Positions 11,235 to 30,186 of a stretch of DNA of 64,000 bases are shown piece by piece. Source of the stretch: Candidatus Limnocylindrales bacterium. GTDB taxonomy: Bacteria; Chloroflexota; Limnocylindria; Limnocylindrales; CSP1-4. The notes beneath the pieces were generated by a model. The model was not told the DNA's origin. It saw nothing but the letters and a program-made list of their open reading frames with translations, and ran no database searches. Location of the stretch: NCBI GenBank assembly GCA_025450915.1, contig JANWLH010000124.1, positions 356 through 64,355 on the forward strand, given 5' to 3'. A program made the position numbers and the translations under genes. The first letter of the stretch is position 1. Every line of letters starts with the position of its first letter.

Positions 11235-11237
11235 CAC

Positions 11238-14482: not shown

Positions 14483-15445
14483 GTGACGGACGCGTTCGTT
14501 ATTGGCCGGATCGGCGTCGACCTGACGCCGGAGGCGCCGCGCACCTCCCTGGCGGATGCCACGAGGTTCGTCCGCGCGATCGGCGGCTTTGCCGGGAACA
14601 TCGGCATCGGCCTGGCCAGGCTGGGCATCTCGACCGCGGTCATCTCGAGCATCGGCGACGACGGTCACGGCGATCACGTGCGGCAGGAGCTGGCCACCGA
14701 GGGAATCGACGTTGGCAGCCTGCTCACCCGACCTGGGTCCCGGACCCAGGTCGCCTTCTTCGAAGCGTGGCCGCCGGAGCATTTCCCGGTGACCTTCTAT
14801 CGGCCGGATCCACCGCCGGATACCCAGCTGGCGATGGCCGACGTCCCGCTGGCCGCCCTGGAGGTGGCCCCGATCGCGATCTTCTCGGGAACGCTCCTGG
14901 CCGCCGAGCCCGCCCGCTCAACGACCCTCGAGATGCTCAACGCCCGATCCGCGGCACGCCCGCGCCGGGGCACGTCATGGACGATTCTCGACCTCGACTG
15001 GCGGCCGACGCTGTGGGCTGATCCGGGGGCGTACCCGGCGCTCATCGACGCGGCCGCTCAGCTCAGCGACGTGCTCATCGGCAGCGATTCCGAGTTCGCC
15101 GCAGCAGGCCTGCGACCGGGCGAGGCCATCACGGCCGGGCGGGCGCTGACGGTCCTCAAGCACGGGCCCGGTGGCGTCACACTGCTGGCCGACGGCTCGC
15201 GCCGCTCGTTGCCGGGGATTGCCGTCGAGGTCGTCTGCGGCCTCGGGGCCGGCGATGCCCTCACGGCGGCGTTCGCGGCCGGGTTGCTCGCCGGGCTCGA
15301 TCCGATCCGCGCTCTCGAGCGTGGCAACGCAGCCGGTGCGATCGTGGCGTCGCGCCTGATGTGCAGCGCGGCCATGCCGATCCCCGACGAAATCGACAAG
15401 CTGCTGACCACGAGTCCGATCCGGCCCAAGGAGATCCGCCTGTGA
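14483..15445 (+). CDS. iolC: 5-dehydro-2-deoxygluconokinase (PfkB family, IolC)
   Basis: 320-aa ORF with GTG start. N-terminus VIGRIGVDLTPE..., GGFAGNIGIGLARLG, and C-terminal PfkB motif GAGDALTAAF. Confidence 0.88.
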   Translation: MTDAFVIGRIGVDLTPEAPRTSLADATRFVRAIGGFAGNIGIGLARLGISTAVISSIGDDGHGDHVRQELATEGIDVGSLLTRPGSRTQVAFFEAWPPEHFPVTFYRPDPPPDTQLAMADVPLAALEVAPIAIFSGTLLAAEPARSTTLEMLNARSAARPRRGTSWTILDLDWRPTLWADPGAYPALIDAAAQLSDVLIGSDSEFAAAGLRPGEAITAGRALTVLKHGPGGVTLLADGSRRSLPGIAVEVVCGLGAGDALTAAFAAGLLAGLDPIRALERGNAAGAIVASRLMCSAAMPIPDEIDKLLTTSPIRPKEIRL

Positions 15446-16368
15446 CGCGTCCTGATGAGCCCCGGGAACTGACGATCCACCCGGCGAAGCTGCCGTCCCG
15501 GCTGCCGCCCGAGATGCTCCACATCAAGCCGGGTGCCGATCGTGTCGTGGCCACGGATCCGGCGCGTTCGGGCTGGCGCTATCTCTCGTTTCGATCGTTC
15601 GGGCTGGCCGAGGGCGAGGTCGCGCTGCTCGATTCGCCGGAGCAGGAAGCGGCCATCGTCACGATCTCCGGTGGCGGCGTCGAGATCGCCCTGGATGGCC
15701 GCGCCAACCTCGAGCTGACCGGCCGGCCGTCGGTCTTCGAGGGCCTGCCCTGGAGTGCCTACATCCCGGCCGGGACCACGGCCCGGATCATCGGCCGGCC
15801 ACTGCCCGGCCAGCGGTCCGTCGTCGCAATCGCCCAGGCACCCCTGACCGGCCGGACGGGGATTGCCCGCGAGCCGATCGTGGTCGCCCCGAACGACGTC
15901 CAGGTCGAGCTCAGGGGCGCCGGCAACTGCACTCGCCAGGTCAACAACATCATGATGCCGGACTTCCCCGCCGACCGGCTCCTGATCTGCGAGGTCTTCA
16001 CGCCGTCGGGCAACTGGTCCGGCTGGCCACCGCACAAGCACGATGTCGACGATCCGCCCCGCGAGGCAGTCCTCGAGGAGACCTACTTCTACCAGTTCCG
16101 GCGGCCCGAGGCCTGGGCCATCCAGCGGATCTATCACCGTGACGGGTCACGCGACTTGCTGCTGCCCGTCCACCACGGCGACCTGGTGATCGTCGACCAG
16201 GGGTACCACCCGTTCATCGCCACGCCGGGCTACGACGCCTATTTCATCAACGCACTGGCCGGCGACCGGCGGACGATGGCCAACACCGACGACCCCGACC
16301 TCGCCTGGGTCCGGACGCTGTGGCCGGACATGGAACCCGATCCTCGCCTGCCGCTCGTCAAGCCGTGA
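15442..16368 (+). CDS. iolB: 5-deoxy-glucuronate isomerase (IolB)
   Basis: GTG 15442 overlaps the iolC stop (GTGA), with AAGGAG at 15428-15433. Blocks AGNCTRQVNNI, SGNWSGWPPHKHD and GYHPF are characteristic of IolB. Confidence 0.9.
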   Translation: MTRPDEPRELTIHPAKLPSRLPPEMLHIKPGADRVVATDPARSGWRYLSFRSFGLAEGEVALLDSPEQEAAIVTISGGGVEIALDGRANLELTGRPSVFEGLPWSAYIPAGTTARIIGRPLPGQRSVVAIAQAPLTGRTGIAREPIVVAPNDVQVELRGAGNCTRQVNNIMMPDFPADRLLICEVFTPSGNWSGWPPHKHDVDDPPREAVLEETYFYQFRRPEAWAIQRIYHRDGSRDLLLPVHHGDLVIVDQGYHPFIATPGYDAYFINALAGDRRTMANTDDPDLAWVRTLWPDMEPDPRLPLVKP

Positions 16369-17333
16369 TCGCGAACGGCTCCGGCGACGTCTCGCCGGCG
16401 TCCTCGGACGTGGCCGCGCGCGACGGCCTGCGCCGCCGCCTCCAGCGCCTCGGCGGCCCGGATGGGGTGATGGCGGGCATCGCCATCGACCATCGCGACA
16501 GCCTGCGGGTCACGCTCGAGAAGCGCGGTGTCAGCGGCCTGGCGATCGGCGACATGCGCCGGCTCAAGCTCGCCCTCACCCGGGTCCTCGCACCGGCGGC
16601 CACCGCCCTGATGCTCGACGCCGAGCTGGGGGCGCTCGCATTCGAGCAGGGCGCGGTGCCCGCCTCGACCGGGCTGATCATGCCCCTCGAGGCGCAGGGC
16701 TACGAGGTGGCCGGGGATGGCCGGACCACCAGCCTGCTCGGCGACTTCTCACCGGCCCGGGCCGTCGTGTACGGCGCCGATGCCTGCAAGCTGCTCCTGC
16801 CCTATCGCGCCGACGACGAGCCGTCGGCTGCGGCCCAGGATGCCCTTGCGGCGGCCGTGGCGAGGAGCTGCCACGCACTGGGCATGCCGCTGGTCGTCGA
16901 GCCGGTCGTCTACCGCTGGTCGACCGAGTCGGAGACGCAGTACGCGGCCGCGTTTCCTGGACTCCTGCTCAGCGCCGTCGGACGGCTCCAGCCGCTCGGC
17001 GCAGACCTCCTCAAGGTGGCCTTCCCGGTGCTCGACCTCGGCGCGACCGGCGAGCTCGGGGCGATCGACGCCTGCCGGGCGCTGGCCGACGCGTGCGCCG
17101 AGACGCCGTGGGTGCTGCTCGGAGCCGGTGTCGACGTCGACACGTTCGTCGAACAGATCCGGCTCGCCGGCTCGGCCGGTGCATCCGGGTTCCTCGCCGG
17201 TCGCGGGATCTGGGGCCCCGCCCTGGCGGTCGATCCGGGCGAGGCCGAGAGAATCGCCCGCGACGTGGCCTTGCCGGCCTTCGAACGCTGCCGGGAGGTC
17301 GCCCGGCGGACCGGCCGGCCGCTCCGGGCCTGA
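16365..17333 (+). CDS. Class I aldolase of the LacD/DUF2090 type; candidate 5-dehydro-2-deoxyphosphogluconate aldolase (IolJ analogue)
   Basis: GTG 16365 overlaps the iolB stop (GTGA). Blocks AIDHRDSL, KLLLPY and GADLLKVAFPV (Schiff-base lysine context as in tagatose-bisphosphate aldolase LacD). Its position directly after iolC-iolB fits this role. Confidence 0.75.
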   Translation: MIANGSGDVSPASSDVAARDGLRRRLQRLGGPDGVMAGIAIDHRDSLRVTLEKRGVSGLAIGDMRRLKLALTRVLAPAATALMLDAELGALAFEQGAVPASTGLIMPLEAQGYEVAGDGRTTSLLGDFSPARAVVYGADACKLLLPYRADDEPSAAAQDALAAAVARSCHALGMPLVVEPVVYRWSTESETQYAAAFPGLLLSAVGRLQPLGADLLKVAFPVLDLGATGELGAIDACRALADACAETPWVLLGAGVDVDTFVEQIRLAGSAGASGFLAGRGIWGPALAVDPGEAERIARDVALPAFERCREVARRTGRPLRA

Positions 17334-18205
17334 TGCCGCCGATCGTGGCCGGGGCCGTGACGGCCGTCGCCTATGCCATCTCGACGCTCACCTCGGCGCG
17401 GGCCAGCCGGATCGCCGGTCCCGTGCCGTCGGTGGCCGGGGTGATGGTGGTCGGGTCGATCCTGTTGCTGCCGGTTGCCCTGCTCGTCACGCCGCTGCCG
17501 ACGGTGCCCGCCGTGGCCGCTTCGACGTTCGCCTGGTCGGCCGTCGCCGGCGCGGCCAACGTCGGCGGCCTCCTGCTCGCCTACGCGGGCTACCGGATCG
17601 GCGCGGTGGGCGTCGTCTCGACGATCGGCTCGACCGAAGGGGCGATCGCTGCGGTCATCTCGGTCCTGGCCGGGCAGGTCCTGGCCGCGGGGTCCGGGCC
17701 GGCCCTGGCGCTGGTCGCGATCGGGGTGATGCTGGCAGCGACCGGCGGTGGCCATGAGCTCGAGGAGGGCCGGACCATCGAGCGTCGGCAGTCGCTGCGG
17801 GCGGCCGGCTTCGCGGGCTGTGGCGCCCTGCTCCTGGGCATCGGGCTGTTCGTGGCCGGCCAGGTGAGCACGACCCTGCCGGCGGCGTGGGTCGTCCTGC
17901 CGGGCCGAATCGTCGGGGTCGCGCTGGTGACGATTCCGGTGACCCTGATGGGTCGCCTGCGGATCCCGCGGGCGGCCCTGAGGTACGTCCTTGCGACGGG
18001 CCTGGTCGAGGTGATCGGCCTGACCTCGTTCTCGATCGGCGCCCGGCAGGACATCGCGGTGACCTCGGTCCTCGGCTCGATGTTCGCGCCGCTGGCGGCG
18101 CTCGCGGCCTTCGTCCTGTTCAAGGAACGCCTCGCCCGGCGGCAGGTGCTGGGAATCGCCCTGGTCGTGGCCGGGATCGCGATCCTCGGTGCGCTGACCG
18201 TCTAG
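17333..18205 (+). CDS. EamA/DMT-family membrane transporter
   Basis: ATG 17333 overlaps the preceding stop (TGATG). About 10 hydrophobic helices in two EamA-like halves. Confidence 0.8.
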   Translation: MPPIVAGAVTAVAYAISTLTSARASRIAGPVPSVAGVMVVGSILLLPVALLVTPLPTVPAVAASTFAWSAVAGAANVGGLLLAYAGYRIGAVGVVSTIGSTEGAIAAVISVLAGQVLAAGSGPALALVAIGVMLAATGGGHELEEGRTIERRQSLRAAGFAGCGALLLGIGLFVAGQVSTTLPAAWVVLPGRIVGVALVTIPVTLMGRLRIPRAALRYVLATGLVEVIGLTSFSIGARQDIAVTSVLGSMFAPLAALAAFVLFKERLARRQVLGIALVVAGIAILGALTV

Positions 18206-18232
18206 CCCGTAGCTCAGGAAGGCTCACTCCTC

Positions 18233-19075
18233 ATGCAGCTGGTCTACAACTCGAACTCGACGATGCACCTGCCGGCGCTGATGCAGATCCGGCTGGCCCG
18301 GGAGACCGGCTGGGACGGGGTCTTCCTGCGCGAGGAGCATCTCCGCCGGTATCTCGCCCAGGGCTATGACCTGGCCAGCCTCCGATCAGCGCTGGCCGGG
18401 CTCGAGCCGGTCAACCTGGGGGCCCTGGCCGACGTCGAACGCTGGCAGCCTGACGAGCGGTCGAACATGCTCCGCGAGGCGGACGCGCTGACGGAGCTGG
18501 CAGCCGGTATCGGCGCCACGTTCATCCAGCTCCTCAGCGGGCCGGTCCAGCCGGGCGGCACGTATCGCGGACCGGGCGGCCTGTCGCGCGCGGAACGGCG
18601 CGACGTGACGGCGAGCGCGCTGCGCGCCGTTGCTCGCACCGGCGCAGCGCGCGGGATTCGCTACTACCTCGAACCGATCGCCTGGACGCCCCTGGCGCCG
18701 CTCGCCGAGGCCGTCGAGGCGGTCGATGCAGCGGAGGCCGACAACATCGGCCTGGTCCTCGACTTCTGGCACCTCTGGCAGGCCGGAACGACCCCCGACG
18801 AGGTCGCCCGGCTCGATCCGCGGATCATCTTCGGGGTCGATTTCGCCGATTCGCTCGGTGCACCCGGTTCGCCCGACCCGGACCAGCTCAGCCGGCGGGT
18901 GTGGCCCGGTGAAGGTTCGATGCCCCTCGCCGAATGGGTTGACGCCGTGCGTGCCACCGGCTTCGATGGCTGGTGGGACAATGAGCTGTACAGCCCGTTT
19001 CATTGGGAGCGGGCGGACCCGGTCGCCGTGGCAAGCGGGCTTCGCGAGGTGCTCCTCGAGGTGCTCCGGACCTGA
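18233..19075 (+). CDS. Sugar phosphate isomerase/epimerase (xylose isomerase-like TIM barrel)
   Basis: 280-aa ORF with ATG start preceded by AGGAAGG. Blocks YYLEPIAW, LVLDFWHLW and DNELYSP are typical of the family. Confidence 0.85.
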   Translation: MQLVYNSNSTMHLPALMQIRLARETGWDGVFLREEHLRRYLAQGYDLASLRSALAGLEPVNLGALADVERWQPDERSNMLREADALTELAAGIGATFIQLLSGPVQPGGTYRGPGGLSRAERRDVTASALRAVARTGAARGIRYYLEPIAWTPLAPLAEAVEAVDAAEADNIGLVLDFWHLWQAGTTPDEVARLDPRIIFGVDFADSLGAPGSPDPDQLSRRVWPGEGSMPLAEWVDAVRATGFDGWWDNELYSPFHWERADPVAVASGLREVLLEVLRT

Positions 19076-19088
19076 CGCGCGGCGCTTG

Positions 19089-19117
19089 TTGACGATGTGC
19101 AGGGCCGATGCTACGGT
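19089..19117 (+). promoter_or_regulatory. Candidate promoter of the LacI-type regulator gene (TTGACG-17-TACGGT)
   Basis: -35-like TTGACG at 19089-19094 and -10-like TACGGT at 19112-19117, followed by operator site 3. Confidence 0.35.
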
Positions 19118-19122
19118 CGGTG

Positions 19123-19136
19123 CGCAATCGGTTGCT
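19123..19136. promoter_or_regulatory. LacI-type operator candidate, site 3 (CGCAATCGGTTGCT)
   Basis: The core GCAATCGGTTGC is identical to site 2. It lies 6 nt after the -10-like hexamer and about 10 nt upstream of the regulator start, consistent with autoregulation. Confidence 0.5.
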
Positions 19137-19145
19137 TTGCGGAGG

Positions 19146-20243
19146 ATGAGGTCCGGTGAGAGCGGGCGCTTGGTAGCCAGCGGATACCCGGCCGGACCAC
19201 GCCGGCGGATCCTGCTCAAGGATGTCGCCACCTCGGCGAACGTCTCCGGCTCGACCGCTTCGCGGGCCCTGGCCGACGACCCCCGGATCAGCCTGGCAAC
19301 CCGGCTGTCCGTGAAGGCCGCCGCGGCCGAGCTCAACTACGTCCCCAACGCGGCGGCTCGCAGCCTGCGCATGAAGCACACCCGGACACTCGGCCTGCTG
19401 ATCCCCGACCTGCGCGATCCGGTCCATGGCCAGGTCGCCTCGGGCTTCGAGGAAGAGGCCCGCCGGAGCGGCTACTGCGTGATCATGGTGGCCGGCGAGA
19501 ACGAGCCGGCCCGCGAACGCCTGGCCCTCAAGATCTTTGCCGAGCATGGCGCCGATGGTGTCGCGATCGTGTCCGGCGCGATCTCGCCCAGGGAGGCTCG
19601 CGAGCGGGTCGACCCGGAACGCCTGATCCTCGTCCAGCCCGACCACCACAGTCTGCCCCGCCGCGAAGGGGTCGTGCCGCCCGGGGTGATCCTGACCGAC
19701 GATGCCGGCGGGCTCAAGGCCGCCGTCAATCACCTCGTCGACAATGGCTACCGCCGGATCGCGTACGTCGAGGGCGGCGGCGGCGCGACCAACAAGGTTC
19801 GCTCGGAAGCAGTCGCGACCACCCTCCGCAGCCGGGGCGTCAAGACGGCGCTGCGCACGTTCGGCGCCGGCGACGACACCTGGCGGGACCCGACCGAGCT
19901 GGCTTCGGAGATCGCCACGGACCTGCCCGAAGCCCTGGTCTGCTACGACGACAAGCTGGCCCTCGCCCTGATGGACGCGTTGCGCAAGCTCAGGATCCGG
20001 GTCCCCGAAGATATCGGCATGGTCGGCTTCGACGGGATCCCGTTCGCGGCCATCTCCAATCCCCGCCTGACGACCGTGGCCACGCCGGCCGGCGAGATGG
20101 GCCGCCTCGCCGCGGCGTCGCTGGTCCGGACGATCCAGGTGGGTGCCCGCCTCGAGGCGGTCCTCCTGCCACCCGACCTGATCGTCCGCGAGAGCACCCG
20201 GACCTTGTCCCCGCCGACCCGCAACCACGACCCGCGGAGCTGA
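19146..20243 (+). CDS. LacI-family transcriptional regulator (candidate repressor of the inositol island)
   Basis: Lies in ORF 18630..20243. The HTH ILLKDVATSANVSGSTASRALADDPRISLATRLSVKAAAAELNYVPNAAARSL is followed by a periplasmic-binding-protein-like core. The start is ATG 19146 or TTG 19170 (uncertain). Confidence 0.9.
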   Translation: MRSGESGRLVASGYPAGPRRRILLKDVATSANVSGSTASRALADDPRISLATRLSVKAAAAELNYVPNAAARSLRMKHTRTLGLLIPDLRDPVHGQVASGFEEEARRSGYCVIMVAGENEPARERLALKIFAEHGADGVAIVSGAISPREARERVDPERLILVQPDHHSLPRREGVVPPGVILTDDAGGLKAAVNHLVDNGYRRIAYVEGGGGATNKVRSEAVATTLRSRGVKTALRTFGAGDDTWRDPTELASEIATDLPEALVCYDDKLALALMDALRKLRIRVPEDIGMVGFDGIPFAAISNPRLTTVATPAGEMGRLAAASLVRTIQVGARLEAVLLPPDLIVRESTRTLSPPTRNHDPRS

Positions 20244-20247
20244 CGGC

Positions 20248-21291
20248 ATGAGCACCTTCACGGTGGGCGACCCGGCCAGCATCGGAGTTGCCTTCCTGGG
20301 CGTCGGCCGGATGGGCCAGACCCATATCCAGACCCTTGGCGGGATACGCAACGTACGGGTCCTCGTGGTTGCCGACCAGGATCCGGCGGCGGCCGAGCGC
20401 GGGCGGCAGATTGCTCGGGCCGGACGGGCGACGAGCGACCCGCTCGATGCGATCAACGACCCGGCGGTCGAGGCGGTGGTCATCTCCACGCCCACCGATA
20501 CCCATGCCACCCTGATCGAGGCAGCCCTGCGGGCAGGCAAGGCGATCTGGAGCGAGAAGCCGATCGCCCTGAACCTGGTCGAGACCAGCCGGGTCGTCAA
20601 CGTGTGGCGGACGGCGGGCCTTCCCGTGCAGCTCGGCTTCATGCGCCGGTTCGACCCGGGCTATGTCCGGGCCAAGGCCCTGATCGATGCCGGCGAGCTG
20701 GGCCGGATCGAGCAGTTCCGGGCCTATTCACGCGACACCTACCCGCCGTCCGCCGAGTTCATCAAGGGCAGCGGTGGCTCGTTCCTGGACATGGCCGTCC
20801 ACGACTTCGACCTGGCCCGGTTCCTGGTTGGCGAGGTCGAGGAGGTCTCGTCGTGGGGCAATGTCCTGATCGACGAGCGGTTCAGCAGAGGTGACGACAT
20901 CGACACGTCGGTGACGATGCTCCGCTTCCGCAACGGCGCCCTGGGCGTTGTCGAGATGTCGCGTCGCTCCGTCTGGGGCTACGACATCCGGACCGAAGTG
21001 GCCGGCGCAACGGGCAAGGTCGTCGTCGAGGCGCCCGTCAAGACGCCGATCACCTTCTCGCGCCGGTTCGGCTTCGAGGGCGATCACTACGAGAACTTTC
21101 CCGACCGCTTCGAGGTCGCCTATCGGCTCGAGCTCGAGGCGTTCTTCGAGACGCTGGCGGCAGGGCGAACGCCCACGCCGGGACCCGAGGAGGCCCTCGA
21201 AACACTGCGCCTGGCCGTTGCCGCCCGGCGCAGCTGGCGCGAAGGCCGGCCGGTGAAGCTCGACGACGTGACGATCGAGAATCCGGACTGA
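20248..21291 (+). CDS. iolG: Gfo/Idh/MocA-family oxidoreductase, inositol 2-dehydrogenase-like (IolG)
   Basis: 347-aa ORF. Rossmann N-terminus VAFLGVGRMGQTH, EKP motif (IWSEKPIA), and VQLGFMRRFDPGYV, which closely resembles the B. subtilis IolG block VQVGFMRRYDSGYV (from memory). Confidence 0.82.
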   Translation: MSTFTVGDPASIGVAFLGVGRMGQTHIQTLGGIRNVRVLVVADQDPAAAERGRQIARAGRATSDPLDAINDPAVEAVVISTPTDTHATLIEAALRAGKAIWSEKPIALNLVETSRVVNVWRTAGLPVQLGFMRRFDPGYVRAKALIDAGELGRIEQFRAYSRDTYPPSAEFIKGSGGSFLDMAVHDFDLARFLVGEVEEVSSWGNVLIDERFSRGDDIDTSVTMLRFRNGALGVVEMSRRSVWGYDIRTEVAGATGKVVVEAPVKTPITFSRRFGFEGDHYENFPDRFEVAYRLELEAFFETLAAGRTPTPGPEEALETLRLAVAARRSWREGRPVKLDDVTIENPD

Positions 21292-21321
21292 GGCCTTCCT
21301 CGCCGCGGCCCGCCTGACCGA

Positions 21322-23904
21322 TCAGGGCCTGGCGATGCGCCGCCGGAGCGTCTCGAGGCTCGAGTCGAAGAAATCGACCATCCGGGCCCGCTCGGACGGC
21401 TGGGCGATCGCGGCCAGCTCGGCCACCCAGGTCCGCGCCCCGAGCATGATCTGCTCGACGAGCGCGCCGTCCTGCAGCGCAGGGATGAGCGGTGAATCCC
21501 GGACCTCGACGTAGACCGGCGAAGTGTGCGCGGCCATCGAGGTCGTGAACGCGGAGTGGATCTCGTCGGCGCTTCGTGAGCGCGCCGCGATCCAGGCGCC
21601 GGCGGTGACCTCGACCCGCTCGTGGAGGCGCAGCTCGCTCGACCCGGCGGGGTCGCTCGTCGCGGCGGCGACCCGCCCGTTGATCACGAGCTCGACGTGG
21701 GTGATCACCGGCTGGGCCGCCCGGGCACGAACGATGACGTCGAGCCGGCCGGCGGACGGCAGCGCGATGACCGCCCCCGGCTCGTGCCCGTCGACGGCCA
21801 GCTCGAGCACCGGCCCGGAGGTCACGAATGTCCTCCCGGCCCGAACCGCGGCCGCCCAGGAGTCGAAGGTCAGTGCGTCGTCGTCGAGAAGGTGCCCGTA
21901 GGTCCGGACCGCCCCGACCGGCACCTCGGCGGACATCTTGTCGGTACCGGCCACCACGGGCAGGCGGTAGCCCAGGTTCAGGAAGCGGTACCACTCGAGC
22001 ACGGCCGGGTCGTCGAGGCCGGGCGACAGCGCCTGGGTCTCGATTGCATCGATCTTGCCGGCCACGATATCGGCCGCGATCTCCGCGTAGGGCAGTGGGA
22101 AGTGAGCCGCGACGACGAGCCCGCCGGCGGCCCGGCAGCGGTCGGCCCAATCGGCGAGGAGGACGCTCAGGGCGCCGGCCATCCGTCCTTCCGGTGGACC
22201 GCCGCTGGCCAGCGGGCTGGTGGGCCGGTGGGCGCCCAGCAGGGCCAGGTGGCCGAGCATGTTCTGGCGGTTCTCCGTCCCGACCACGATCATCCGGCGC
22301 CCGGCCGGATCGGCCAGCGAGCCGAACGGCAGGTCGGCGACGTTCGTGAACAGGTCGCCCCACTGGGCCGCGAGGAGGTTCACGAGGTCGAGGTCCTCGG
22401 CCGCCGCCTGGAGGAGTGCGCTCGACGGCGAGAGGAAGTGGACGTGGGTGTCCGCAGTCACCCAGCGCCCGGCATGGAGGTCGATCGCCCGCTCGAGAGG
22501 CAGCTCGAGCCGGCCGGTTGATCCATCGATCGCCAGCCGGGCTCGATACGGCCGCCGGTCGAAACCGCCGACGACCTCGACGTCGACGGCCCCCTGCGGC
22601 AGGTCGATCGAGAACCGGCCGGGAACGTAGGCGTAGGCCGCGGAGCCGAGGATCAGGTCGGCTCCGGTGTCTTCGAAGAACCCGGGATTGATCTCGTCGC
22701 GGTGGCCGCGCGGTGGGAGATAGCGGCCGTCGGCCGTCGTGAACCGGACGCGCGCCGGGATGCGCTCACCGCTCGGCGGGTCGACGATCTCGACGTCCAC
22801 TGGGAGGTCCGCGGCCGGGAGCAGCTCGATCGACCGGCGGCCAGCCGGGTCGGAGCCGGGGCTCCCCGCCAGCAGGTCCCGGCCGGCGATCCTCCAGCCA
22901 TCGAGGCTGAGCAGGCCGTCCGGGGCCAGCGCCAGGTCGACGATCAGCTCCGGCGGGCGACCGGCCTCGCGCTGGGTCCGATCGCTGCCCCAGCCGATGA
23001 CGGCCGAGCCGCTCCCGTCCCCGTCCGCGGCCGGCGCCGCGCGAGCCCGGCGTGTCCGGATGATCGTGCCCAGGTCGACCCGTGCCTCGTCGCCGGCCAG
23101 CCCGCCGATCCGCACCTGGAAGCGCGGGCTGTGCGCGAGCGGATTGGCCGACCCGCGAAACACGCTGACCGCCGCGAGGATCAGGTCGCTGCCCGGCCGG
23201 CCGGCGCTGAGTGGCTCGAGCTGGAGGGCGACGGGCACGGCGCCAGGACCAAGCTCGATGGCGTGGAGCCAGAGGAGCGCGTCGTCGGTGGCGCTGGGCA
23301 CGAAGTCGGTCATCCCGGTCTGGCTCGTGCCGTACGTCCCGGGCATGATTGTCAGTGTTCCGGACTGCCCGGTGGGCGCATACCGGCCCGGCTCCTGGAT
23401 CGCGTGCGGACCGCGCCAGTCGAGCACCTCGTTATTGCGGTGGGCGATCGCCGCGAACGCTCCGGATCCCCAGCCCAGGATCCCGTCGTTGACCTCGAAC
23501 CGACGGCGGATCACGCGCGCCGTCCTGCGCCCCGCCGTGTCGACGACCGTGTACCGCGCCAGCTGCTCGCCGACCGGCACGACATGGCCGACTGCCAGGC
23601 CGGCCGGCCGCCGGCCGGCGTCGTCCCGCCAGGTGTCACACAGGTGGGCGACCAGGAGGTGGCTGGCCGGCCCGACATTCCCGATCTCGATCGTGATCGG
23701 CCGATCGATCAGGACCCAGCGCGCGTCCGGTGATCCGGGACCCAGCTCGAACGGCAGCCCGTGGAAGACCTGGCGCCCGCTTGGCAGGCGCCCCAGCGCG
23801 GCCCCGTAGAGGTCCTGGAAGCGCGGGCCGAGCCCGCTCTCGGTGGCGTTCCGCCAGTGGTCGATGTCGACGGTCGCGGCGAGCGGACTGCCGCTCACGG
23901 ACAT
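21322..23904 (-). CDS. Large PHP-domain metallohydrolase-like protein (CehA/McbA-like), paralogue B, 860 aa
   Basis: Collinear with paralogue A over its full length. Shared blocks include LVAHLCDTWRD/VVAHFADSWRD, RRRFEVNDGILGWG/RRRFEIADGIIGWG, TADTHVHF/TSDSHVHF, GTENRQNMLGHLALLG and AGTDKMSAEVPVGAVRTY. Confidence 0.85.
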   Translation of the reverse strand: MSVSGSPLAATVDIDHWRNATESGLGPRFQDLYGAALGRLPSGRQVFHGLPFELGPGSPDARWVLIDRPITIEIGNVGPASHLLVAHLCDTWRDDAGRRPAGLAVGHVVPVGEQLARYTVVDTAGRRTARVIRRRFEVNDGILGWGSGAFAAIAHRNNEVLDWRGPHAIQEPGRYAPTGQSGTLTIMPGTYGTSQTGMTDFVPSATDDALLWLHAIELGPGAVPVALQLEPLSAGRPGSDLILAAVSVFRGSANPLAHSPRFQVRIGGLAGDEARVDLGTIIRTRRARAAPAADGDGSGSAVIGWGSDRTQREAGRPPELIVDLALAPDGLLSLDGWRIAGRDLLAGSPGSDPAGRRSIELLPAADLPVDVEIVDPPSGERIPARVRFTTADGRYLPPRGHRDEINPGFFEDTGADLILGSAAYAYVPGRFSIDLPQGAVDVEVVGGFDRRPYRARLAIDGSTGRLELPLERAIDLHAGRWVTADTHVHFLSPSSALLQAAAEDLDLVNLLAAQWGDLFTNVADLPFGSLADPAGRRMIVVGTENRQNMLGHLALLGAHRPTSPLASGGPPEGRMAGALSVLLADWADRCRAAGGLVVAAHFPLPYAEIAADIVAGKIDAIETQALSPGLDDPAVLEWYRFLNLGYRLPVVAGTDKMSAEVPVGAVRTYGHLLDDDALTFDSWAAAVRAGRTFVTSGPVLELAVDGHEPGAVIALPSAGRLDVIVRARAAQPVITHVELVINGRVAAATSDPAGSSELRLHERVEVTAGAWIAARSRSADEIHSAFTTSMAAHTSPVYVEVRDSPLIPALQDGALVEQIMLGARTWVAELAAIAQPSERARMVDFFDSSLETLRRRIARP

Positions 23905-23930: not shown

Positions 23931-23959
23931 TTGACGGGCCATATACCAGACGCTAGCAT
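23931..23959 (+). promoter_or_regulatory. Candidate promoter of the Pot-type importer operon (TTGACG-17-TAGCAT)
   Basis: -35-like TTGACG at 23931-23936, a 17-nt spacer, and -10-like TAGCAT at 23954-23959, in the 104-bp divergent region shared with paralogue B. Confidence 0.4.
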
Positions 23960-23961
23960 CG

Positions 23962-23975
23962 TACAAACGGTTGCA
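23962..23975. promoter_or_regulatory. LacI-type operator candidate, site 4 (TACAAACGGTTGCA)
   Basis: Begins 3 nt after the -10-like hexamer and shares CGGTTGCA with sites 2 and 3. Confidence 0.45.
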
Positions 23976-24008
23976 CAAGAGGATGCTTGATGCCCGGATC
24001 TCGAGCCT

Positions 24009-25136
24009 GTGGTCACCAACCAGCCCTGGCCTGGGCGTCCCGCGGACTCCGACTTGGCTGAGCCGGTTCCCGCGATCGAGCTACGCCACGCGACGAAACG
24101 ATATGGCGAAGCCGTCGCCCTCGATGACGTCTCGATGGTCATCCAGCCGGGCGAGTTCTTCTGCCTGCTGGGCCCCTCCGGTTGCGGCAAGACGACGACC
24201 CTCAACCTGATCGGTGGGTTCATCCCGCTGACTTCGGGCGACCTGCTGATCGAGGGTCACACGGTCAACGACCTGCCGCCCCACAAGCGCAATGTGAATA
24301 CGGTCTTCCAGAGCTACGCCCTCTTTCCCCACATGACCGTGGCGGAGAACGTTGCCTTCGGCCTGCGCATGGAGAAGCTGTCGAAGGCCGACATCGCCCA
24401 GCGCACCCGTGAGTACCTGGAGCTCGTCGGGCTGAGCGGCCTCGCCGGTCGCCTGCCGGCGCAGATGTCGGGCGGGCAGCAACAGCGGGTCGCCCTGGCG
24501 CGGGCTTTGGCCAAACGGCCGGCGGTGCTGCTCCTCGACGAGCCGCTCGGGGCCCTGGACCTCAAGCTCCGCAAGCAGATGCAGACCGAGCTGGCCCGAA
24601 TCCATCGGCAGGTCGGGACGACCTTCGTCTTCGTCACCCACGACCAGGAAGAGGCCCTGTCGATGGCGACCCAGATCGCCATCATGTCGAACGGCACGGT
24701 CCTCCAGCAGGGCTCCCCACGGGAGGTCTACGATCGGCCCGCGAACCGGTTCGTGGCCGATTTCGTCGGCGACACGAACTTCCTGGCGGGTACCGTCCGA
24801 CGCGACGGTGGCCAGGCCGTCTTCGATGTCGGCAGCGCGGTCGTGGACGTGCAGGGCGACGCCGAGGCGGGGCCGGCGACGCTGATGATCCGCCCCGAGT
24901 TCCTGGCCCTGCGCCAGGGCGACGCGACCGACGGCCCGCGCGGATTGACGGCCCGCGTCGTCAACGTCGCCTTTCTGGGCAATCACACGCGAATCACGGT
25001 CTCCACCGCGGCAGGCGAGATGGTGGTGGTGAGACCGCACGGGACCAGGGATTCGACCGCAGACACGCAGCGCGAATTGGGTGAGGAGGTTTGCGTATGG
25101 TGGCGAACCGAGAACGCAGCACTGATCCGCGAGTAG
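24009..25136 (+). CDS. ABC transporter ATP-binding protein, PotA-like
   Basis: Walker A GPSGCGKTT, signature MSGGQQQRVALARAL, Walker B LLLDEPLGALD, and VFQSYALFPHMTVAENVAFGLRM, which is typical of PotA-type ATPases. The start (GTG 24009) is uncertain because there is no clear RBS. Confidence 0.88.
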   Translation: MVTNQPWPGRPADSDLAEPVPAIELRHATKRYGEAVALDDVSMVIQPGEFFCLLGPSGCGKTTTLNLIGGFIPLTSGDLLIEGHTVNDLPPHKRNVNTVFQSYALFPHMTVAENVAFGLRMEKLSKADIAQRTREYLELVGLSGLAGRLPAQMSGGQQQRVALARALAKRPAVLLLDEPLGALDLKLRKQMQTELARIHRQVGTTFVFVTHDQEEALSMATQIAIMSNGTVLQQGSPREVYDRPANRFVADFVGDTNFLAGTVRRDGGQAVFDVGSAVVDVQGDAEAGPATLMIRPEFLALRQGDATDGPRGLTARVVNVAFLGNHTRITVSTAAGEMVVVRPHGTRDSTADTQRELGEEVCVWWRTENAALIRE

Positions 25137-25160
25137 CGACATTGATTGGAGGAGGATGGA

Positions 25161-26339
25161 ATGGCTGATCTCAACCGGCATCTCGGTCGCCGAGAGTTCC
25201 TGAGACTCGCCGGGGCGGTCGGAGCAACCGCCGGCCTGGGCGCGTTCCTGGCGGCCTGCGGGGCGAGCGGTGCGACCGCGACGCCGCCGGCGGCGAGCTC
25301 CGCCCCCGTGGCCTCGGGCGCCGCTCCGTCAGCAGCCGCGACGCCCGGGCCGACCGGCACGTTCAACTGGCTCACCTGGGGCGACCACTGGTACCAGGCC
25401 GAGATGGACAAGATCGCGGCCGACATCGGGATCAAGGCGAACATCACCAGCTTCAGCGACGACATCGACGCCTACACGAAGGTCCAGCAGGTCGGCGGCC
25501 AGATCGACCTGGTCTCGGAAGACGCCCTGTGGGTGCCGTACTTCTACCAGCACCAATTGATCGATGCGTTCGACATCAACTCACTGAAGGTGGCCAGCCA
25601 GCTGTACTCGGTCGCCCGCGAATTCTCGATCTGGACCAGCCCCGCCGGCTACCTCGGCTACCCGAACGGCTGGGCGCCGATCCAGATCACCTACGACCCC
25701 GCTCACGTGACCCCGGGCGCCGACTCGTGGCAGCTCCTGCTGGACCCGAAGTACAAGAAGCGCGTCGTCGTCGAGGACCAGCCGGTCGAGGTCATGGCCT
25801 ACATGGGCAAGGCCGCCGGTGTCAAGGATCCCTACAACATGACCGACGCCGAGGTCGCCCAGGCAAAGGCGCTCCTCGTCCAGCTCAAGCCGAACATCCT
25901 GCGCCTCGCGCCGCAGGCCACCGACACCGTCGCGGCCCTCAAGAACGGCGAGGCCTGGATCGCGACGATCAACCTCGGTGCCGACACGGCGGTCATGGAC
26001 CAGGGTGGGCCGAAGCTGACCACGTTCACGCCCAAGGAAGGCTCGATCGGCTGGATGGACGCCGAGATGCTCGTCCACGGCGGGGCCAACAACAACCTGC
26101 TGATGCCGTTCCTCGAGGTCCACGAGCAGGCTGAATACGTTGCCGCCAACTTCATGATCAACCGCCGGCCACTCTTCAGCGAGGCGGCCTACAAGCTGCT
26201 GATCAACCAGGGCCAGCAGGAGCTCGCCGATCACCTGCTCTTCAACAAGCCCGAGACGGTCAACACGATGACCCTCAAGGGTCCGGGTACCTCGACCCAG
26301 GCCGCGATCGCCGCGTTCAACGACGTCTTCGGCTCATAG
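25161..26339 (+). CDS. ABC substrate-binding lipoprotein, PotD/PotF-like (amine-type binding protein), Tat signal
   Basis: ATG 25161 is preceded by GGAGGAGG (25148-25155). Twin-arginine RREFLRLAG plus lipobox LAAC. The mature part resembles spermidine/putrescine-type binding proteins. Confidence 0.88.
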   Translation: MADLNRHLGRREFLRLAGAVGATAGLGAFLAACGASGATATPPAASSAPVASGAAPSAAATPGPTGTFNWLTWGDHWYQAEMDKIAADIGIKANITSFSDDIDAYTKVQQVGGQIDLVSEDALWVPYFYQHQLIDAFDINSLKVASQLYSVAREFSIWTSPAGYLGYPNGWAPIQITYDPAHVTPGADSWQLLLDPKYKKRVVVEDQPVEVMAYMGKAAGVKDPYNMTDAEVAQAKALLVQLKPNILRLAPQATDTVAALKNGEAWIATINLGADTAVMDQGGPKLTTFTPKEGSIGWMDAEMLVHGGANNNLLMPFLEVHEQAEYVAANFMINRRPLFSEAAYKLLINQGQQELADHLLFNKPETVNTMTLKGPGTSTQAAIAAFNDVFGS

Positions 26340-26362
26340 GGCATCGACTAGCCAAACCCGAG

Positions 26363-27280
26363 ATGACCGTGGCTTCCGACGGCGGGGTCCCTTCGGGCCC
26401 AGCCGCCGGATCCTCGTCCGGGCTCGTCAAGCGATTCGGCAGGGCCCTACCGGCCCTGCCGGGCCTTGCCGTGCTCCTCTTCCTGTTCCTGGTCCCGATG
26501 GCGATCATGTTCGTGTTCAGCTTCTGGCGCACGAACAACGACTTCGTCGTCGTGCCCGAGTGGAACCTCGGCAACTACGCCCGGTTCTTCGTCGAGGGAA
26601 CCTACCTGCGGACCTTCATCAAGACCCTGATCATGGCGGGCCTCGTCACCGTGGCGGCCCTCGCGATCGGCCTGCCCTTCGCCTACTTCCTCGTGCGCTA
26701 CACGGGCAAGCTGACCCAGCGCGTGATCCTGCTGGCGGTCATCGTTCCGTTCTGGACGAGCTACCTCGTCCGGGTCTATGCCTGGCAGGCAATCCTCGGC
26801 GAGCACGGCGCGCTCAACCAGATCCTCCAGGCAATAGGGGTCATCAAGGTCCCCCTGGACATCTTCAATTACGACGATCCGGGCGTGTTCGTCGTCCTCA
26901 CCTACATCTACTTCCCGTTCGCCCTGCTGGCCCTGTATGCCTCACTGGAGAAGTTCGACTTCACCCAGCTCAACGCTGCCCAGGACCTCGGAGCGCGGCC
27001 GGACCAGGCGTTCCGGCACATCCTGCTGCCCCAGATCCGGGCCGGGATCATCACCGCCTGCATCTTCGTGTTCATCCCGATCCTGGGTGAGTTCCTGACG
27101 CCGACCCTGGTGGGCGGCGCCCAGAGCAGCCTGATCGCGAACCTCGTGCTGAACTTCCTGCGGAATGACCAGTTCGCGGAGGGCGCCGCCCTGGCCATCA
27201 TCATTGCGGCCTTTGTGACCGCGATCATGATCGTGTTCCGGAAGTCGTTCCGGGTTGAGGACGTGGTCACCAGTGGCTAG
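26363..27280 (+). CDS. ABC transporter permease (PotB-like)
   Basis: 305-aa ORF with six hydrophobic helices and an EAA-type loop (LNAAQDLGARPDQAFRHILLPQ). Confidence 0.88.
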   Translation: MTVASDGGVPSGPAAGSSSGLVKRFGRALPALPGLAVLLFLFLVPMAIMFVFSFWRTNNDFVVVPEWNLGNYARFFVEGTYLRTFIKTLIMAGLVTVAALAIGLPFAYFLVRYTGKLTQRVILLAVIVPFWTSYLVRVYAWQAILGEHGALNQILQAIGVIKVPLDIFNYDDPGVFVVLTYIYFPFALLALYASLEKFDFTQLNAAQDLGARPDQAFRHILLPQIRAGIITACIFVFIPILGEFLTPTLVGGAQSSLIANLVLNFLRNDQFAEGAALAIIIAAFVTAIMIVFRKSFRVEDVVTSG

Positions 27281-27302
27281 GGGGACCAGCCCGCTCGAGA
27301 CG

Positions 27303-28133
27303 ATGCCGGTCAGCCGCTTCGCCCGGCAGACGCGCTGGTCGCTGATCGTCCTGACGGGCGCGATGCTGGCCTTCCTGTACCTGCCGATCGCGTTCCTGAT
27401 CCTGTTCTCGTTCGAGGACGCGGCGACGCCGGGCCTCCCGATCACCGGGCTGACCCTGCACTGGTACCAGGTGCTCGCGTCGGATTCGGCGATCCAGAGT
27501 GCCCTGCTGACCTCGATCGAGGTCGCTGTCGTGGTCACGATCATCGCCTCGATCGTGGGCACGATGGTCGCCTTCCCGCTGGTCCGCCGTGGCGTCCGCG
27601 CCCCGGGCCTGCTCCGGCTCGGCTTCACCCTGCCGATCATGATCCCGGGCTTCCTGATCGGGATCGGGCTGCTGATCTTCTTTCGCCAGGGGCTCCATCC
27701 GCTGATCGATGTCCAGCTCGGCCTGTACACCGTGGTCGCCGGCCACCTGGTCTTCACGATCCCGTTCGTGGTCCTGATCGTCGCTTCCCGACTGCAGGGC
27801 TTTGACCGCCGCCTCGAATGGGCCGCCGCGGATCTCGGAGCGGGGCCGTGGCGGACGCTCCGCCACATCGTCCTGCCCTTGATCGCGCCGGCGATCCTTG
27901 CCGGTGCACTCCTGTGCGTGACCCTGTCGATCGACGAGTTCGTGATCACGTTCTTCCTCATCGGCCCGCAACAGACCCTGCCGCTGTACATCTACACGCA
28001 GATCAAGTTCGGGGTCACGCCCGAGGTCAACGCGATCGCGACGGTCATCCTCCTCGTATCCCTGTTGGCGGTCACGCTCGGCTCGATCCTGCTCACGAGC
28101 AGCCGCCGGCTGCGCCGCCGTCGGGCCGAATGA
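27303..28133 (+). CDS. ABC transporter permease (PotC-like)
   Basis: Lies in ORF 27255..28133. The EAA-type loop is LEWAAADLGAGPWRTLRHIVLPL. The start is ATG 27303, or GTG 27273 overlapping the previous stop (uncertain). Confidence 0.85.
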   Translation: MPVSRFARQTRWSLIVLTGAMLAFLYLPIAFLILFSFEDAATPGLPITGLTLHWYQVLASDSAIQSALLTSIEVAVVVTIIASIVGTMVAFPLVRRGVRAPGLLRLGFTLPIMIPGFLIGIGLLIFFRQGLHPLIDVQLGLYTVVAGHLVFTIPFVVLIVASRLQGFDRRLEWAAADLGAGPWRTLRHIVLPLIAPAILAGALLCVTLSIDEFVITFFLIGPQQTLPLYIYTQIKFGVTPEVNAIATVILLVSLLAVTLGSILLTSSRRLRRRRAE

Positions 28134-28143: not shown

Positions 28144-29145
28144 TTGAGCGGCCTCCTCGGCTCGCGCCCCGGTCCGGAGGCACCGCTCCGAATCGGGTTC
28201 CAGGTCTGGGGCATGTCTGCAGGCTGGGATGAGCTGATGGCCGCCGGCGAACGGATCGAGGCCCTCGGCTTTGCCAGCCTGTTCGCCAACGACCACCTGA
28301 TGCCGATCCTGGGCGACGCCGACGGGCCCGTCCTGGGCGCCGAGGGACCGGTCTTCGAGGGCTGGATGACGCTCGGTGCCTGGGCGGCAAGGACGAGCCG
28401 GGTGCCCCTCGGGGTCCTGGTCTGTGGCGTCGGCTATCGCAACGTCGGGCTGACCGTCAAGATGGCGACCGCCCTCGACCACGCGAGCGCGGGCCGGGCG
28501 ATCCTCGGCATCGGTGCGGGCTGGCACGAGCCCGAGCACCGCGCATTTGGCTACGACGCGCTCTCGCTTGGCGACCGGATCAGCCGCCTCGACGAGGCGA
28601 GCCTCCTGGCCCGCGGGCTGCTCGACGGCGACGCAGTGACCCTGGCCGGCCGCTGGGTACGGGCCGAGGCAGCACGCAACGATCCGGAACCGGTCCAGGC
28701 GCACCTGCCGCTGCTGATCGGGGGCAGCGGCGAGAAGCGAACCTTGCGGATCGTCGCCCGGGACGCGGACATCTGGAACGGCGAGGGCGACCCCCAGACG
28801 TACGCCCGAAAGAGTGGCGTGCTCGACGAGCACTGCGCCGCGATTGGTCGCGATCCACGTTCGATCCGGCGGACCGTGGGCATCCAGCCCATCTGCATCA
28901 GGTCGTCACGGTCCGCGGCGGTCGACGCGCTCGCGACCATTCTCGCGAGGCAGGGCGGCAGCGCAGCCGATGCCCGGGCGTGGGCAGCCAGCTCGCCCCT
29001 CGCCGACACCGAGGAGACGGTGATCGGCTTCCTGCGGGGCTGGCACGAGGCCGGTGCCGAGGAGGTGGTCGTCGACCTGCCGATTCCCGTCGACGACGAG
29101 ACGATCGAACGCCTGGCCGGCTCGGTCCGGACGCGCCTGGCGTGA
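28144..29145 (+). CDS. LLM-class F420-dependent oxidoreductase-like protein
   Basis: 333-aa ORF. Blocks LRIGFQVWG, LFANDHLMP, LGIGAGWHEPEH and LLIGGSGEKRTLRIVA are typical of the F420-dependent LLM subgroup. The start codon (TTG 28144) is uncertain. Confidence 0.82.
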   Translation: MSGLLGSRPGPEAPLRIGFQVWGMSAGWDELMAAGERIEALGFASLFANDHLMPILGDADGPVLGAEGPVFEGWMTLGAWAARTSRVPLGVLVCGVGYRNVGLTVKMATALDHASAGRAILGIGAGWHEPEHRAFGYDALSLGDRISRLDEASLLARGLLDGDAVTLAGRWVRAEAARNDPEPVQAHLPLLIGGSGEKRTLRIVARDADIWNGEGDPQTYARKSGVLDEHCAAIGRDPRSIRRTVGIQPICIRSSRSAAVDALATILARQGGSAADARAWAASSPLADTEETVIGFLRGWHEAGAEEVVVDLPIPVDDETIERLAGSVRTRLA

Positions 29146-29184
29146 TTCCCTGTCACTCCGTCCAAGCCAAGGAGGTTCACCCTG

Positions 29185-30186
29185 ATGCGTGCTGCCGTCT
29201 ATGAAGGCGAGGGCCGGCTGGTTGTCCGTGATGTTCCGGATCCGGTGCCGGCCGCCGACGAGGTCCTGATCGAGGTCGAAGCCTGCGGCGTGTGCGGGTC
29301 CGACGTCCAGATCATCAACATCCCGGCGGGCCATCCGTCGACCCCGCCGGTGATCATCGGCCACGAGTTCGTGGGCTGGATCCGGGCGGTCGGATCGGCG
29401 GTCCGCGATCTCGCGGTCGGCAGCCGGGTCGTCTGCGATCCCGATCCCAAGTGCGGCGCCTGCGACTCCTGTCGGGCCGGCCGGCCGGCCAACTGCACGA
29501 ATATCGTGGCGCTCGGCGTCTACCGCGACGGTGCGCTGGCGCAGTACGTCACCGCCCCGGCGAACAGCGTCTATCCGATCTCCGAGGACGTACCGGCGGA
29601 GCTCGCGGCCCTGGTCGAGCCCCTCGCCTGTGTTGTCAACGGAACAAACCGGGCCGGTCTCCGTCCGGGCGAATCGGTCGTCGTCTTCGGCGCCGGAGCG
29701 ATCGGCTGCCTGTTCACGGCGGTCCTCCACGCGGCCGGCGCCGCCCGGATCATCGTTGTCGAGCCGAGCGCGGCCCGTGCCCCGGTCGCCCGGGCGTTGG
29801 GCGCGGCCGACGTGCTCAGCCCGGACGACTGGGCAGCGCGGCGCGCCGAGCTCATGCCGGCCGGAGCGGACGTCGTCGTCGATGCCGTCGGGAGCGTCCT
29901 GCCCCAGGCGATCGAGGCGGCGGGGATGGGCGCCCGGGTGATCGTCTTCGGGATGAACCAGAACGCCCATCCGGCCGTCCACCAGGTCGAGATCGTCGAG
30001 AAGGGCCTGTCGATCCTGGGCTCGTACATCTCGAACTTCACGTTCCCCGCCGCCATCCGCCTGGTCGAGAGCGGCCAGCTGAACCTGGCCCCGATGATCA
30101 CCGCCACGATCCCGCTCGACGACACCGTCGCGGGGATCGCCCGGATCCGCTCGGGCGAGGCCGTCAAGATCGTCATCAAGCCGTGA
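29185..30186 (+). CDS. Zinc-dependent medium-chain alcohol/polyol dehydrogenase
   Basis: ATG is preceded by AAGGAGG. Catalytic Zn motif CGVCGSDV...GHEFVG, structural Zn cysteines CDPDPKCGACDSC, and Rossmann VVFGAGAIG. Confidence 0.9.
   Translation: MRAAVYEGEGRLVVRDVPDPVPAADEVLIEVEACGVCGSDVQIINIPAGHPSTPPVIIGHEFVGWIRAVGSAVRDLAVGSRVVCDPDPKCGACDSCRAGRPANCTNIVALGVYRDGALAQYVTAPANSVYPISEDVPAELAALVEPLACVVNGTNRAGLRPGESVVVFGAGAIGCLFTAVLHAAGAARIIVVEPSAARAPVARALGAADVLSPDDWAARRAELMPAGADVVVDAVGSVLPQAIEAAGMGARVIVFGMNQNAHPAVHQVEIVEKGLSILGSYISNFTFPAAIRLVESGQLNLAPMITATIPLDDTVAGIARIRSGEAVKIVIKP

Follow-up and report, generated by a model that had tools for sequence, protein, structure and literature searches.

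The stretch of DNA studied here is a 64,000-nucleotide (64-kb) window from an uncultured soil bacterium of the Chloroflexota (Candidatus Limnocylindrales; contig JANWLH010000124.1), and its reverse strand carries two large paralogous genes, which we call A and B. NCBI labels proteins of this type 'CehA/McbA family metallohydrolase'. Gene A is divergent from an operon that includes genes of inositol catabolism (iol), gene B is head-to-head with an importer operon, and a LacI-family gene and an iolG-like gene lie between the two hydrolase genes. The paralogues and the parts of B on which the argument turns are as follows (positions count from the first letter of the window).

8557 to 11181, reverse strand: paralogue A, 874 amino acids (aa), with the same architecture as B (open reading frame [ORF]; NF038032 match at 134 bits; 56% identity to B)
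21322 to 23904, reverse strand: paralogue B, 860 aa, ATG start (ORF)
22780 to 23904, reverse strand: N-terminal 375 residues of B, without a Pfam model and confined to the A/B-type architecture
21505 to 22467, reverse strand: catalytic domain of B, CehA/McbA type, residues 480-800 (NF038032, alignment)
B residues ~1-290: novel beta-rich N-domain
B residues ~320-470: beta-sandwiches
B residues 480-700: predicted PHP-like barrel
B residues 700-800: beta-sandwich
B residues 810-858: helical hairpin

An earlier note, made from the letters of this DNA, had described B as a second full-length copy of 860 residues, collinear with A, roughly two-thirds identical to it in the catalytic half and less so N-terminally, and had read the pair as an old duplication with both copies intact. 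Each of these statements held up. ORF calls and BLASTP showed A and B to be collinear end to end, with 484/864 (56%) identical positions and 21 gaps, and the C-terminal tail strings quoted in the note were found in both translations. By region, identity in a MAFFT profile alignment was 51% over B1-479, 69% over the catalytic domain (B480-800), and 37% over B801-860. The G+C content at third codon positions (GC3) was 0.91 for B and 0.89 for A in a window of ~70% GC, indicating that both are genuine genes. Long antisense ORFs of 343-656 aa opposite A, B, and iolD (9352-11208 and 22702-23809 on the forward strand, 11178-13148 on the reverse strand) failed the GC3/GC2 test and were rejected as artefacts of the 70% GC composition.

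To place the pair among its relatives, we used two scans of species-representative genomes, which gave 124 loci, nearly all of them in metagenome-assembled genomes (MAGs) labelled Chloroflexota, Chloroflexia, or Candidatus Limnocylindrales. The genome hits number 233 in total. The nearest relative, CAVTKZ01, has copies that are 88% (B) and 83% (A) identical to those of the window. Within the window, A and B are separated by 0.36 nonsynonymous (dN) and 0.89 synonymous (dS) substitutions per site, and comparison of each with its nearest orthologue gave a dN/dS of 0.188 for A and 0.190 for B, that is, equal purifying selection. Neither has lost any candidate metal ligand, a loss that the note had proposed as the mark of a decaying copy. 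Nine positions are fixed differently between clades A and B: four in the N-domain (three of which involve aromatic residues), two in the barrel domain, and three in the helical tail, with no candidate ligand among them. Together, these comparisons make a solid case for an old duplication in which both genes are functional. That one copy might be redundant or decaying is largely refuted, and we regard it as most improbable: some related copies do appear frameshifted (L010, L014, L016), but these loci all belong to MFD-series MAGs and look like assembly errors, whereas both copies in the window are full length, keep all conserved residues, and have a dN/dS of 0.19 each. The MFD-series loci L068, L069, L072, L117, L119, and L123 likewise gave hits that are split or frameshifted, for the hydrolase and its neighbours alike; because neighbouring genes are hit as well, all of these frameshifts are probably assembly errors, and apparent pseudogenes there are not trustworthy.

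Both proteins match the full length (1-315) of the NCBIfam model NF038032 (CehA/McbA family metallohydrolase; cut-off 80 bits), B with 143.0 bits over residues 480-800 and A with 134.1 bits over residues 489-810. The B domain contains D485-x-H487-x-H489, E544, H552, H601, E622, D655, and H793. We aligned A, B, one protein of a more distant C type, two rhizobial homologues, and McbA, a characterised carbaryl hydrolase; thirteen invariant positions, part of a longer list, are kept in both A and B (in B numbering D485, H487, H489, E503, Q514, E544, H552, H601, D619, E622, D655, R667, and H793), and the His, Asp, and Glu positions among them, shared by all six sequences including McbA, are D485, H487, H489, E503, E544, H552, H601, D619, E622, D655, and H793. 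Two distant homologues of ~877 aa, in Paraburkholderia (L126) and Ensifer (L132), are adjoined by genes of the NicO and HupE_UreJ nickel/cobalt transporter families (11747-12874 and 5986-6579 of the respective loci), which hints at a metal that the family may use.

Proteins of the PHP superfamily carry an N-terminal D-x-H-x-H motif, later E/H/H/D ligands, and a terminal D-x-H. A and B share the N-terminal motif and the later E/H/H/D ligand positions, on a barrel that may be PHP-like, with PHP enzymes such as EndoQ, YcdX, and HisK, but in place of the terminal G-x-D-x-H they have G-T-D-K-M, and the distal H793 returns after the beta-sandwich. A Pfam search of A and B gave no meaningful match and no PHP domain even at E<=1, and a Foldseek search of the PDB matched the barrel best, but weakly, to the PHP enzyme EndoQ (7k30), with a TM-score of 0.34.

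CehA and McbA have a homologous catalytic domain, in which the D-x-H-x-H, E, H, H, D, and H positions recur, with the equivalent of McbA H504 among them, and the immunoglobulin (Ig)-like sandwich before it and the beta-sandwich after it also align with A/B. McbA nevertheless aligns with B426-801 only, at 26% identity, and no alignment was obtained between the N-terminal part of McbA and the N-domain (~375 residues) of A/B, although no direct search for this domain in McbA was made. Three McbA histidines, H467, H477, and H504, are reported from mutagenesis to be crucial (PMC8292978). H504 aligns with a histidine in both paralogues (H601 in B, H610 in A), whereas H467 and H477 align with P570 and S580 in B and with A579 and T589 in A, in a divergent, low-confidence loop. 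Since only one of the three is kept, carbamate hydrolysis by A/B should not be assumed. CehA and McbA, xenobiotic enzymes encoded on plasmids or transposons, open their own pathways by hydrolysing a carbamate ester (PMC8292978), while A and B are chromosomal, belong to a sugar-type regulon under a LacI-family regulator, and are conserved across uncultured soil MAGs without a mobile-element context. It is therefore hardly credible that A and B are carbamate-pesticide hydrolases like CehA and McbA, even though they match the same NCBIfam domain model.

The N-terminal half sets the pair further apart. A search of 1.84 billion representatives with the N-terminal 375 residues retrieved no more than 202 clusters; the long ones that were checked had ~830-1017 aa, the rest being fragments, so that the N-domain appears to be private to the A/B-type architecture. 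Its invariant residues are H87, D90, R133-135, E137, and D162-W163. For the fold of B we used an AlphaFold2 prediction based on 59 homologues (predicted local distance difference test score 79.6, predicted template modelling score 0.74), in which the barrel region is confidently predicted. It shows the five parts listed above, the barrel being of the alpha/beta type and the tail consisting of two helices. Foldseek comparison of the full model with the PDB returned only generic Ig, fibronectin type III, and CARDB sandwiches and the weak EndoQ match, with nothing assignable to the N-domain, and sequence searches of the PDB, with the single sequence and with a 59-sequence profile, found no chain. 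A signal peptide or hydrophobic N-terminus is absent from A and B on inspection of their sequences. Together, the sequence and model data suggest that A and B form a distinct subfamily of predicted cytoplasmic metal-dependent hydrolases of ~870 aa with a private beta-rich N-domain.

The note had also placed each copy divergent from a promoter with a TTGACG box, a -10 box, and an operator, and had proposed that the two were under common control. A module of TTGACG-N17/18-TANNNT followed by the palindrome TGTGCAAnCGnTTGCACA indeed occurs in the window, in exactly three copies; the third, which the note did not mention, lies upstream of the LacI-family gene.

11205 to 11257, forward strand: A/iolD intergenic module (TTGACG, TACCTT-like -10 box, then operator cTGCAATCGGTTGCGCa)
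19089 to 19140, forward strand: third module, upstream of the LacI-family gene
23931 to 23981, forward strand: B/potA intergenic module (TTGACG-17-TAGCAT promoter, then operator gTACAAACGGTTGCACa)
19146 to 20243, forward strand: LacI/GalR-family repressor, candidate operator binder (NCBIfam RbsR/CytR/GalR-like matches)

The pattern TTGACG-N(28-40)-CGGTTGC was found three times in the 64 kb (11205, 19089, and 23931, all on the forward strand and all intergenic) versus none in 100 shuffles. A strict sigma-70 consensus scan was passed by the potA promoter only (TTGACG-17-TAGCAT) and found no promoters for A, B, or iolD; the TANNNT-type -10 boxes of the iolD-side and lacI-side modules were read by eye. 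The putative operator, a palindrome of 16-18 bp, lies directly downstream of the divergent promoter and ~64 bp upstream of each hydrolase start (63.5 bp for A and 64.5 bp for B, from operator centre to ATG). From there, a single bound repressor could switch off transcription in both directions, that of A and the iolD operon at one site and that of B and the importer operon at the other. TTGCGC and TTGTGC hexamers overlapped by the operator could be the -35 boxes of the hydrolase genes. The module preceding the LacI-family gene, whose start is uncertain (ATG at 19146 or TTG at 19170), implies autoregulation.

The same arrangement is kept in related genomes. The core motif CAANCGNTTG has 158 sites in the related loci, 138 of them no more than 250 bp ahead of a mapped gene start and 7 inside genes, and conserved flanks extend it to the palindromic consensus TGTGCAAcCGaTTGCAC. 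Upstream of 86 of 91 family genes, the operator lies 60-140 bp from the conserved N-terminal anchor, in agreement with the proposal of common control. These data give solid sequence support to the view that one LacI-type regulon comprises A and B as well as an amine-type importer, a DegT-family aminotransferase, and the Iol pathway.

A neighbour-joining tree resolved an A clade, a B clade, a few single-copy intermediates, and a C clade at ~50% identity. The note had suggested asking whether the two types co-occur across genomes: A is also present in 19 of the 23 B-carrying Limnocylindrales-like assemblies, as a rule on one contig with B and at a distance of 10-15 kb. A single copy with the same partner genes is found in the compact 'A-single' clusters, in the L106/L107 type, and in the whole C clade. 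Within 10 kb of 60 unique family genes, the partners were DegT (54), LacI (53), a solute-binding protein (44), potA (43), and an iolD-like gene (42), consistent with the iol link drawn in the note. In the minimal cluster of L106/L107, the order is LacI, luciferase-like monooxygenase (LLM), two permeases, binding protein, potA, and DegT, divergent from the hydrolase. One MAG, CAVPRZ (L008/L103, CAVPRZ010000009.1, ~18955-21862), has retained B along with the importer and the iol operon but precisely lacks A: its iolD and TIM-barrel gene are only ~150 bp apart at the place where A is missing. The evidence is solid that one lineage has conserved the pairing and that relatives with a single copy retain the same partners.

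As an alternative to two specificities, the note had offered a heteromeric enzyme. If A and B were subunits of one obligate heteromeric hydrolase, the finding of both on one contig in 19 of the 23 assemblies with B and their common operator would be readily explained, and the C-terminal tail, which is the most diverged region (37%) and holds three of the nine clade-fixed differences, could form a specific interface. However, whole clades make do with a single copy and the same partner genes, CAVPRZ retains B with A cleanly absent, and in the window the two genes are ~10 kb apart in separate transcription units, and for these reasons we consider an obligate heteromer very unlikely.

Some features of the single-copy loci stand apart from this comparison. 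In the compact single-copy clusters (L020, 5011-9834), genes for split transketolase subunits and a transaldolase-family protein lie between the IolB-like gene and IolD, and neither iolC nor the aldolase is present within 10 kb, which suggests that these clusters have a different lower pathway. A phosphoglucose isomerase gene beside the hydrolase in L106 was rejected as a functional clue, as it belongs to an adjacent glycolytic block (enolase, phosphoglycerate kinase, and glyceraldehyde-3-phosphate dehydrogenase).

The genes around A and B in the window are the following.

7683 to 8555, reverse strand: xylose-isomerase-like TIM-barrel gene whose start overlaps the stop codon of A
11265 to 19075, forward strand, divergent from A: iolD, DegT, iolC, iolB, LacD-type aldolase (IolJ-like), EamA, and TIM-barrel genes, in this order
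~13207 to 14466, forward strand: DegT/DnrJ/EryC1-family aminotransferase, inside the iolD-iolC-iolB operon
20248 to 21291, forward strand, convergent with B: IolG-like GFO/IDH/MocA dehydrogenase (TIGR04380, 336 bits vs a cut-off of 355)
24009 to 28133, forward strand: Pot-type ABC importer, head-to-head with B
24009 to 25136, forward strand: importer ATPase
25146 to 26339, forward strand: SBP_bac_6 binding protein
26363 to 27280 and 27255 to 28133, forward strand: importer permeases
28144 to 32218, forward strand: distal importer-operon genes, namely an F420-type LLM oxidoreductase, a zinc-type alcohol dehydrogenase (Zn-ADH, IolM-like), an IolE-like TIM barrel, and a transaldolase-family protein

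IolD (TIGR04377, 884 vs 715 bits) and IolB (TIGR04378, 251 vs 205 bits) passed their equivalog cut-offs. As in the Bacillus subtilis iol operon (IolG-E-D-B-C-J), these two are accompanied by IolC, IolG, and an aldolase, which here are near cut-off. The locus differs from that of B. subtilis in having an aminotransferase inside the operon, a LacI-family regulator instead of IolR, and no clear IolE, and in the extra F420-LLM, Zn-ADH, transaldolase, several TIM barrels, and two hydrolases. The TIM-barrel gene at 7683-8555 is the most conserved neighbour of A-type genes, with 72-97% identity across loci, above that of A itself; its product has no PDB relative detectable by sequence, and a gene of this type persists in the MAG that lost A.

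The Zn-ADH and this TIM barrel bear on another view of the hydrolases, in which they would act inside the pathway, on a ring-opening or intermediate step, as a non-homologous stand-in for Thermotoga IolN alongside an IolM-like Zn-ADH and an IolO-like TIM barrel. The Zn-ADH does have IolM as its best NCBIfam match (229 bits), and the A-coupled TIM barrel has a faint IolO match; both scores, however, are far under their cut-offs (450 for IolM and 300 for IolO), a bona fide ring-cleaving IolD is already present, and both the Zn-ADH and the TIM barrel are absent from the minimal clusters L106/L107. We find this role quite unlikely.

The importer beside B is of the Pot type, as the note had read it, with a potA-like ATPase, a binding protein, and two permeases. 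The ATPase passed TIGR01187 (367 vs 355.6 bits) and has both ABC_tran and TOBE_2 domains, and it scored almost equally against 2-aminoethylphosphonate PhnT models. The binding protein matched SBP_bac_6 at an E-value of 1e-9, scored 39 vs 582 bits against PotD, and had PotD/PotF as its best PDB hits (1e-7 to 1e-10). As it is only a distant PotD/PotF relative, the ligand of the importer need not be a polyamine.

The near-equal PhnT score is also one of the points that would fit hydrolases with the usual PHP chemistry, that is, phosphoesterases that dephosphorylate a phosphorylated (amino)cyclitol such as inositol phosphate or inosamine phosphate, or cleave a phosphodiester. The D-x-H-x-H motif with its E/H/H/D/H ligand candidates and the EndoQ match of the barrel (7k30) agree with such a role. 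Several observations speak against it: the Pfam PHP model is not matched at E<=1 and the terminal D-x-H is D-K-M, the only characterised relatives are carbamate esterases, the gene context implies no phosphoester substrate, phosphate-handling genes were not seen among the mapped partners, and the constant partner is an aminotransferase. We judge phosphoesterase activity to be unlikely.

That constant partner, which the earlier note had missed, shapes the explanation we prefer. DegT is the most constant neighbour of the family (54/60), and an amine-bearing substrate therefore seems a better candidate than a plain cyclitol conjugate. In our proposal, the Pot-type ABC system would import an amine-bearing cyclitol compound, still conjugated or N/O-substituted; A and/or B would hydrolyse the linkage of this substrate in the cytoplasm; the DegT aminotransferase would turn the freed amino-cyclitol into a keto-cyclitol (inosose); and the IolE-like, IolD, IolB, IolC, and aldolase steps would carry the inosose to central metabolism. 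The pair may have arisen by duplication within the Limnocylindrales-like lineage from a single-copy cluster, and may have been kept since each copy deals with a substrate of its own, related to that of the other, or with one of several successive deprotection steps. A, which is coupled to the TIM-barrel isomerase-like gene, and B, which is coupled to the importer, would then be independent enzymes rather than an obligate heteromer.

We consider it highly probable that A and B are functional paralogues, that a single LacI regulon ties them to the importer, DegT, and Iol genes, and that they form no obligate heteromer. The specific mechanism, hydrolysis of a conjugate upstream of DegT acting on an amino-cyclitol, is a tentative proposal and less likely than not. 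For the explanation as a whole, which blends the two, we estimate a probability of roughly 50%.

A number of observations weigh against it. The closest solved relative of DegT is KdnA (8-amino-3,8-dideoxy-octulosonate transaminase, 5k8b; E-value 2e-78), whose substrate is an acyclic sugar aldehyde, and inosose aminotransferases match DegT less well (1e-35 to 1e-42). IolC (254 vs 300 bits) and IolG (336 vs 355 bits) fall just under their cut-offs, and there is no clear canonical IolE, the best IolE-like candidate reaching 154 vs 290 bits. PHP-type folds are usually phosphoesterases. The divergent promoters assigned to A and B are by-eye readings that failed the consensus scan. The nine fixed differences include no candidate ligand, so that divergent A/B specificity is putative. 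Finally, the contexts of distant ~875-aa homologues (in Bradyrhizobium, Mesorhizobium, Paraburkholderia, Variovorax, Ensifer, Thermomicrobiales, Trueperaceae, and two metagenome contigs) are heterogeneous: they are catabolic, beside a transporter and a regulator, and indicate no substrate. Plasmid homologues of DegT were considered as a clue to its specificity and rejected as uninformative, the closest (Roseibium, Rhizobium) sitting in biosynthetic clusters.

The proposed route resembles that of the rhizopines, whose catabolism feeds the inositol pathway and in which the DegT-family enzyme MosB interconverts inosose and scyllo-inosamine (PMC10107442). The likeness to the mos/moc systems lies in an amine-bearing cyclitol (here a proposal), a DegT-family aminotransferase, a dedicated binding-protein-dependent importer, GFO/IDH/MocA and TIM-barrel (MocA/MocC-like) enzymes, and the feeding of the product into inositol catabolism. 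Unlike the present locus, moc clusters are without a CehA-like hydrolase and are regulated by MocR (GntR/aminotransferase type) instead of a LacI-family protein (PMC10107442). Rhizobial MosB, moreover, is described in the biosynthetic direction, and the likeness to moc is one of gene type.

A bolder version of our proposal would make A and B a new enzyme family, in which a private N-terminal substrate-recognition domain is joined to a remodelled PHP-like metal centre and catalyses the committed, conjugate-cleaving step of an unrecognised route for a common amine-bearing cyclitol of soil, the duplication splitting two natural substrates. Candidate substrates would include inosamine derivatives and glucosaminyl-inositol from mycothiol or from glycosylphosphatidylinositol-type glycans. 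We regard this version as doubtful; if true, abundant uncultured Limnocylindrales would gain a private source of both carbon and nitrogen.

Searches of the literature on CehA/McbA, scyllo-inosamine catabolism, inositol in Limnocylindria, and aminocyclitol catabolism found nothing on the A/B architecture and no report of the private N-domain, the regulon, the conserved pair, or a link of the family to cyclitol metabolism. The family is annotated at the domain level only, its N-terminal 375 residues having no Pfam model and the proteins no solved or sequence-detectable structure, and it stands at the regulatory centre of a cluster conserved in dozens of species-level MAGs (Chloroflexota / Candidatus Limnocylindrales), many of them from soil surveys. 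Identification of the substrate would show what these Limnocylindrales-like organisms eat, give a natural function to the enzyme family behind the carbamate-pesticide hydrolases, and extend the inositol pathway by an entry branch for aminocyclitols. The pair, its single-copy relatives, and the B-only genome amount to a natural experiment on subfunctionalisation, and the system is a good enzymology lead rather than a surprise.

Other parts of the window also carry catabolic genes. Beside the A operon, an accessory block (4338-7741) encodes a luciferase-like monooxygenase, a cytochrome P450, and a further TIM-barrel protein; the P450 and TIM genes recur beside A-type genes in L070, L075, and L117 and may serve tailoring, for example demethylation of substituted cyclitols. 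Unrelated catabolic modules occupy 44969-53790, with a YhfZ/GntR-type regulator and short-chain dehydrogenase/reductase and glyoxalase-fold genes; the ORFs at 47982-52513 contain ABC-ATPase-like sequence and may form a transporter, and an apiosidase-like glycosidase follows at 52510-53790. An amidohydrolase (38210-39457) and another large ORF are found near these modules. Overall, the 64-kb window looks like a carbohydrate-utilisation island.

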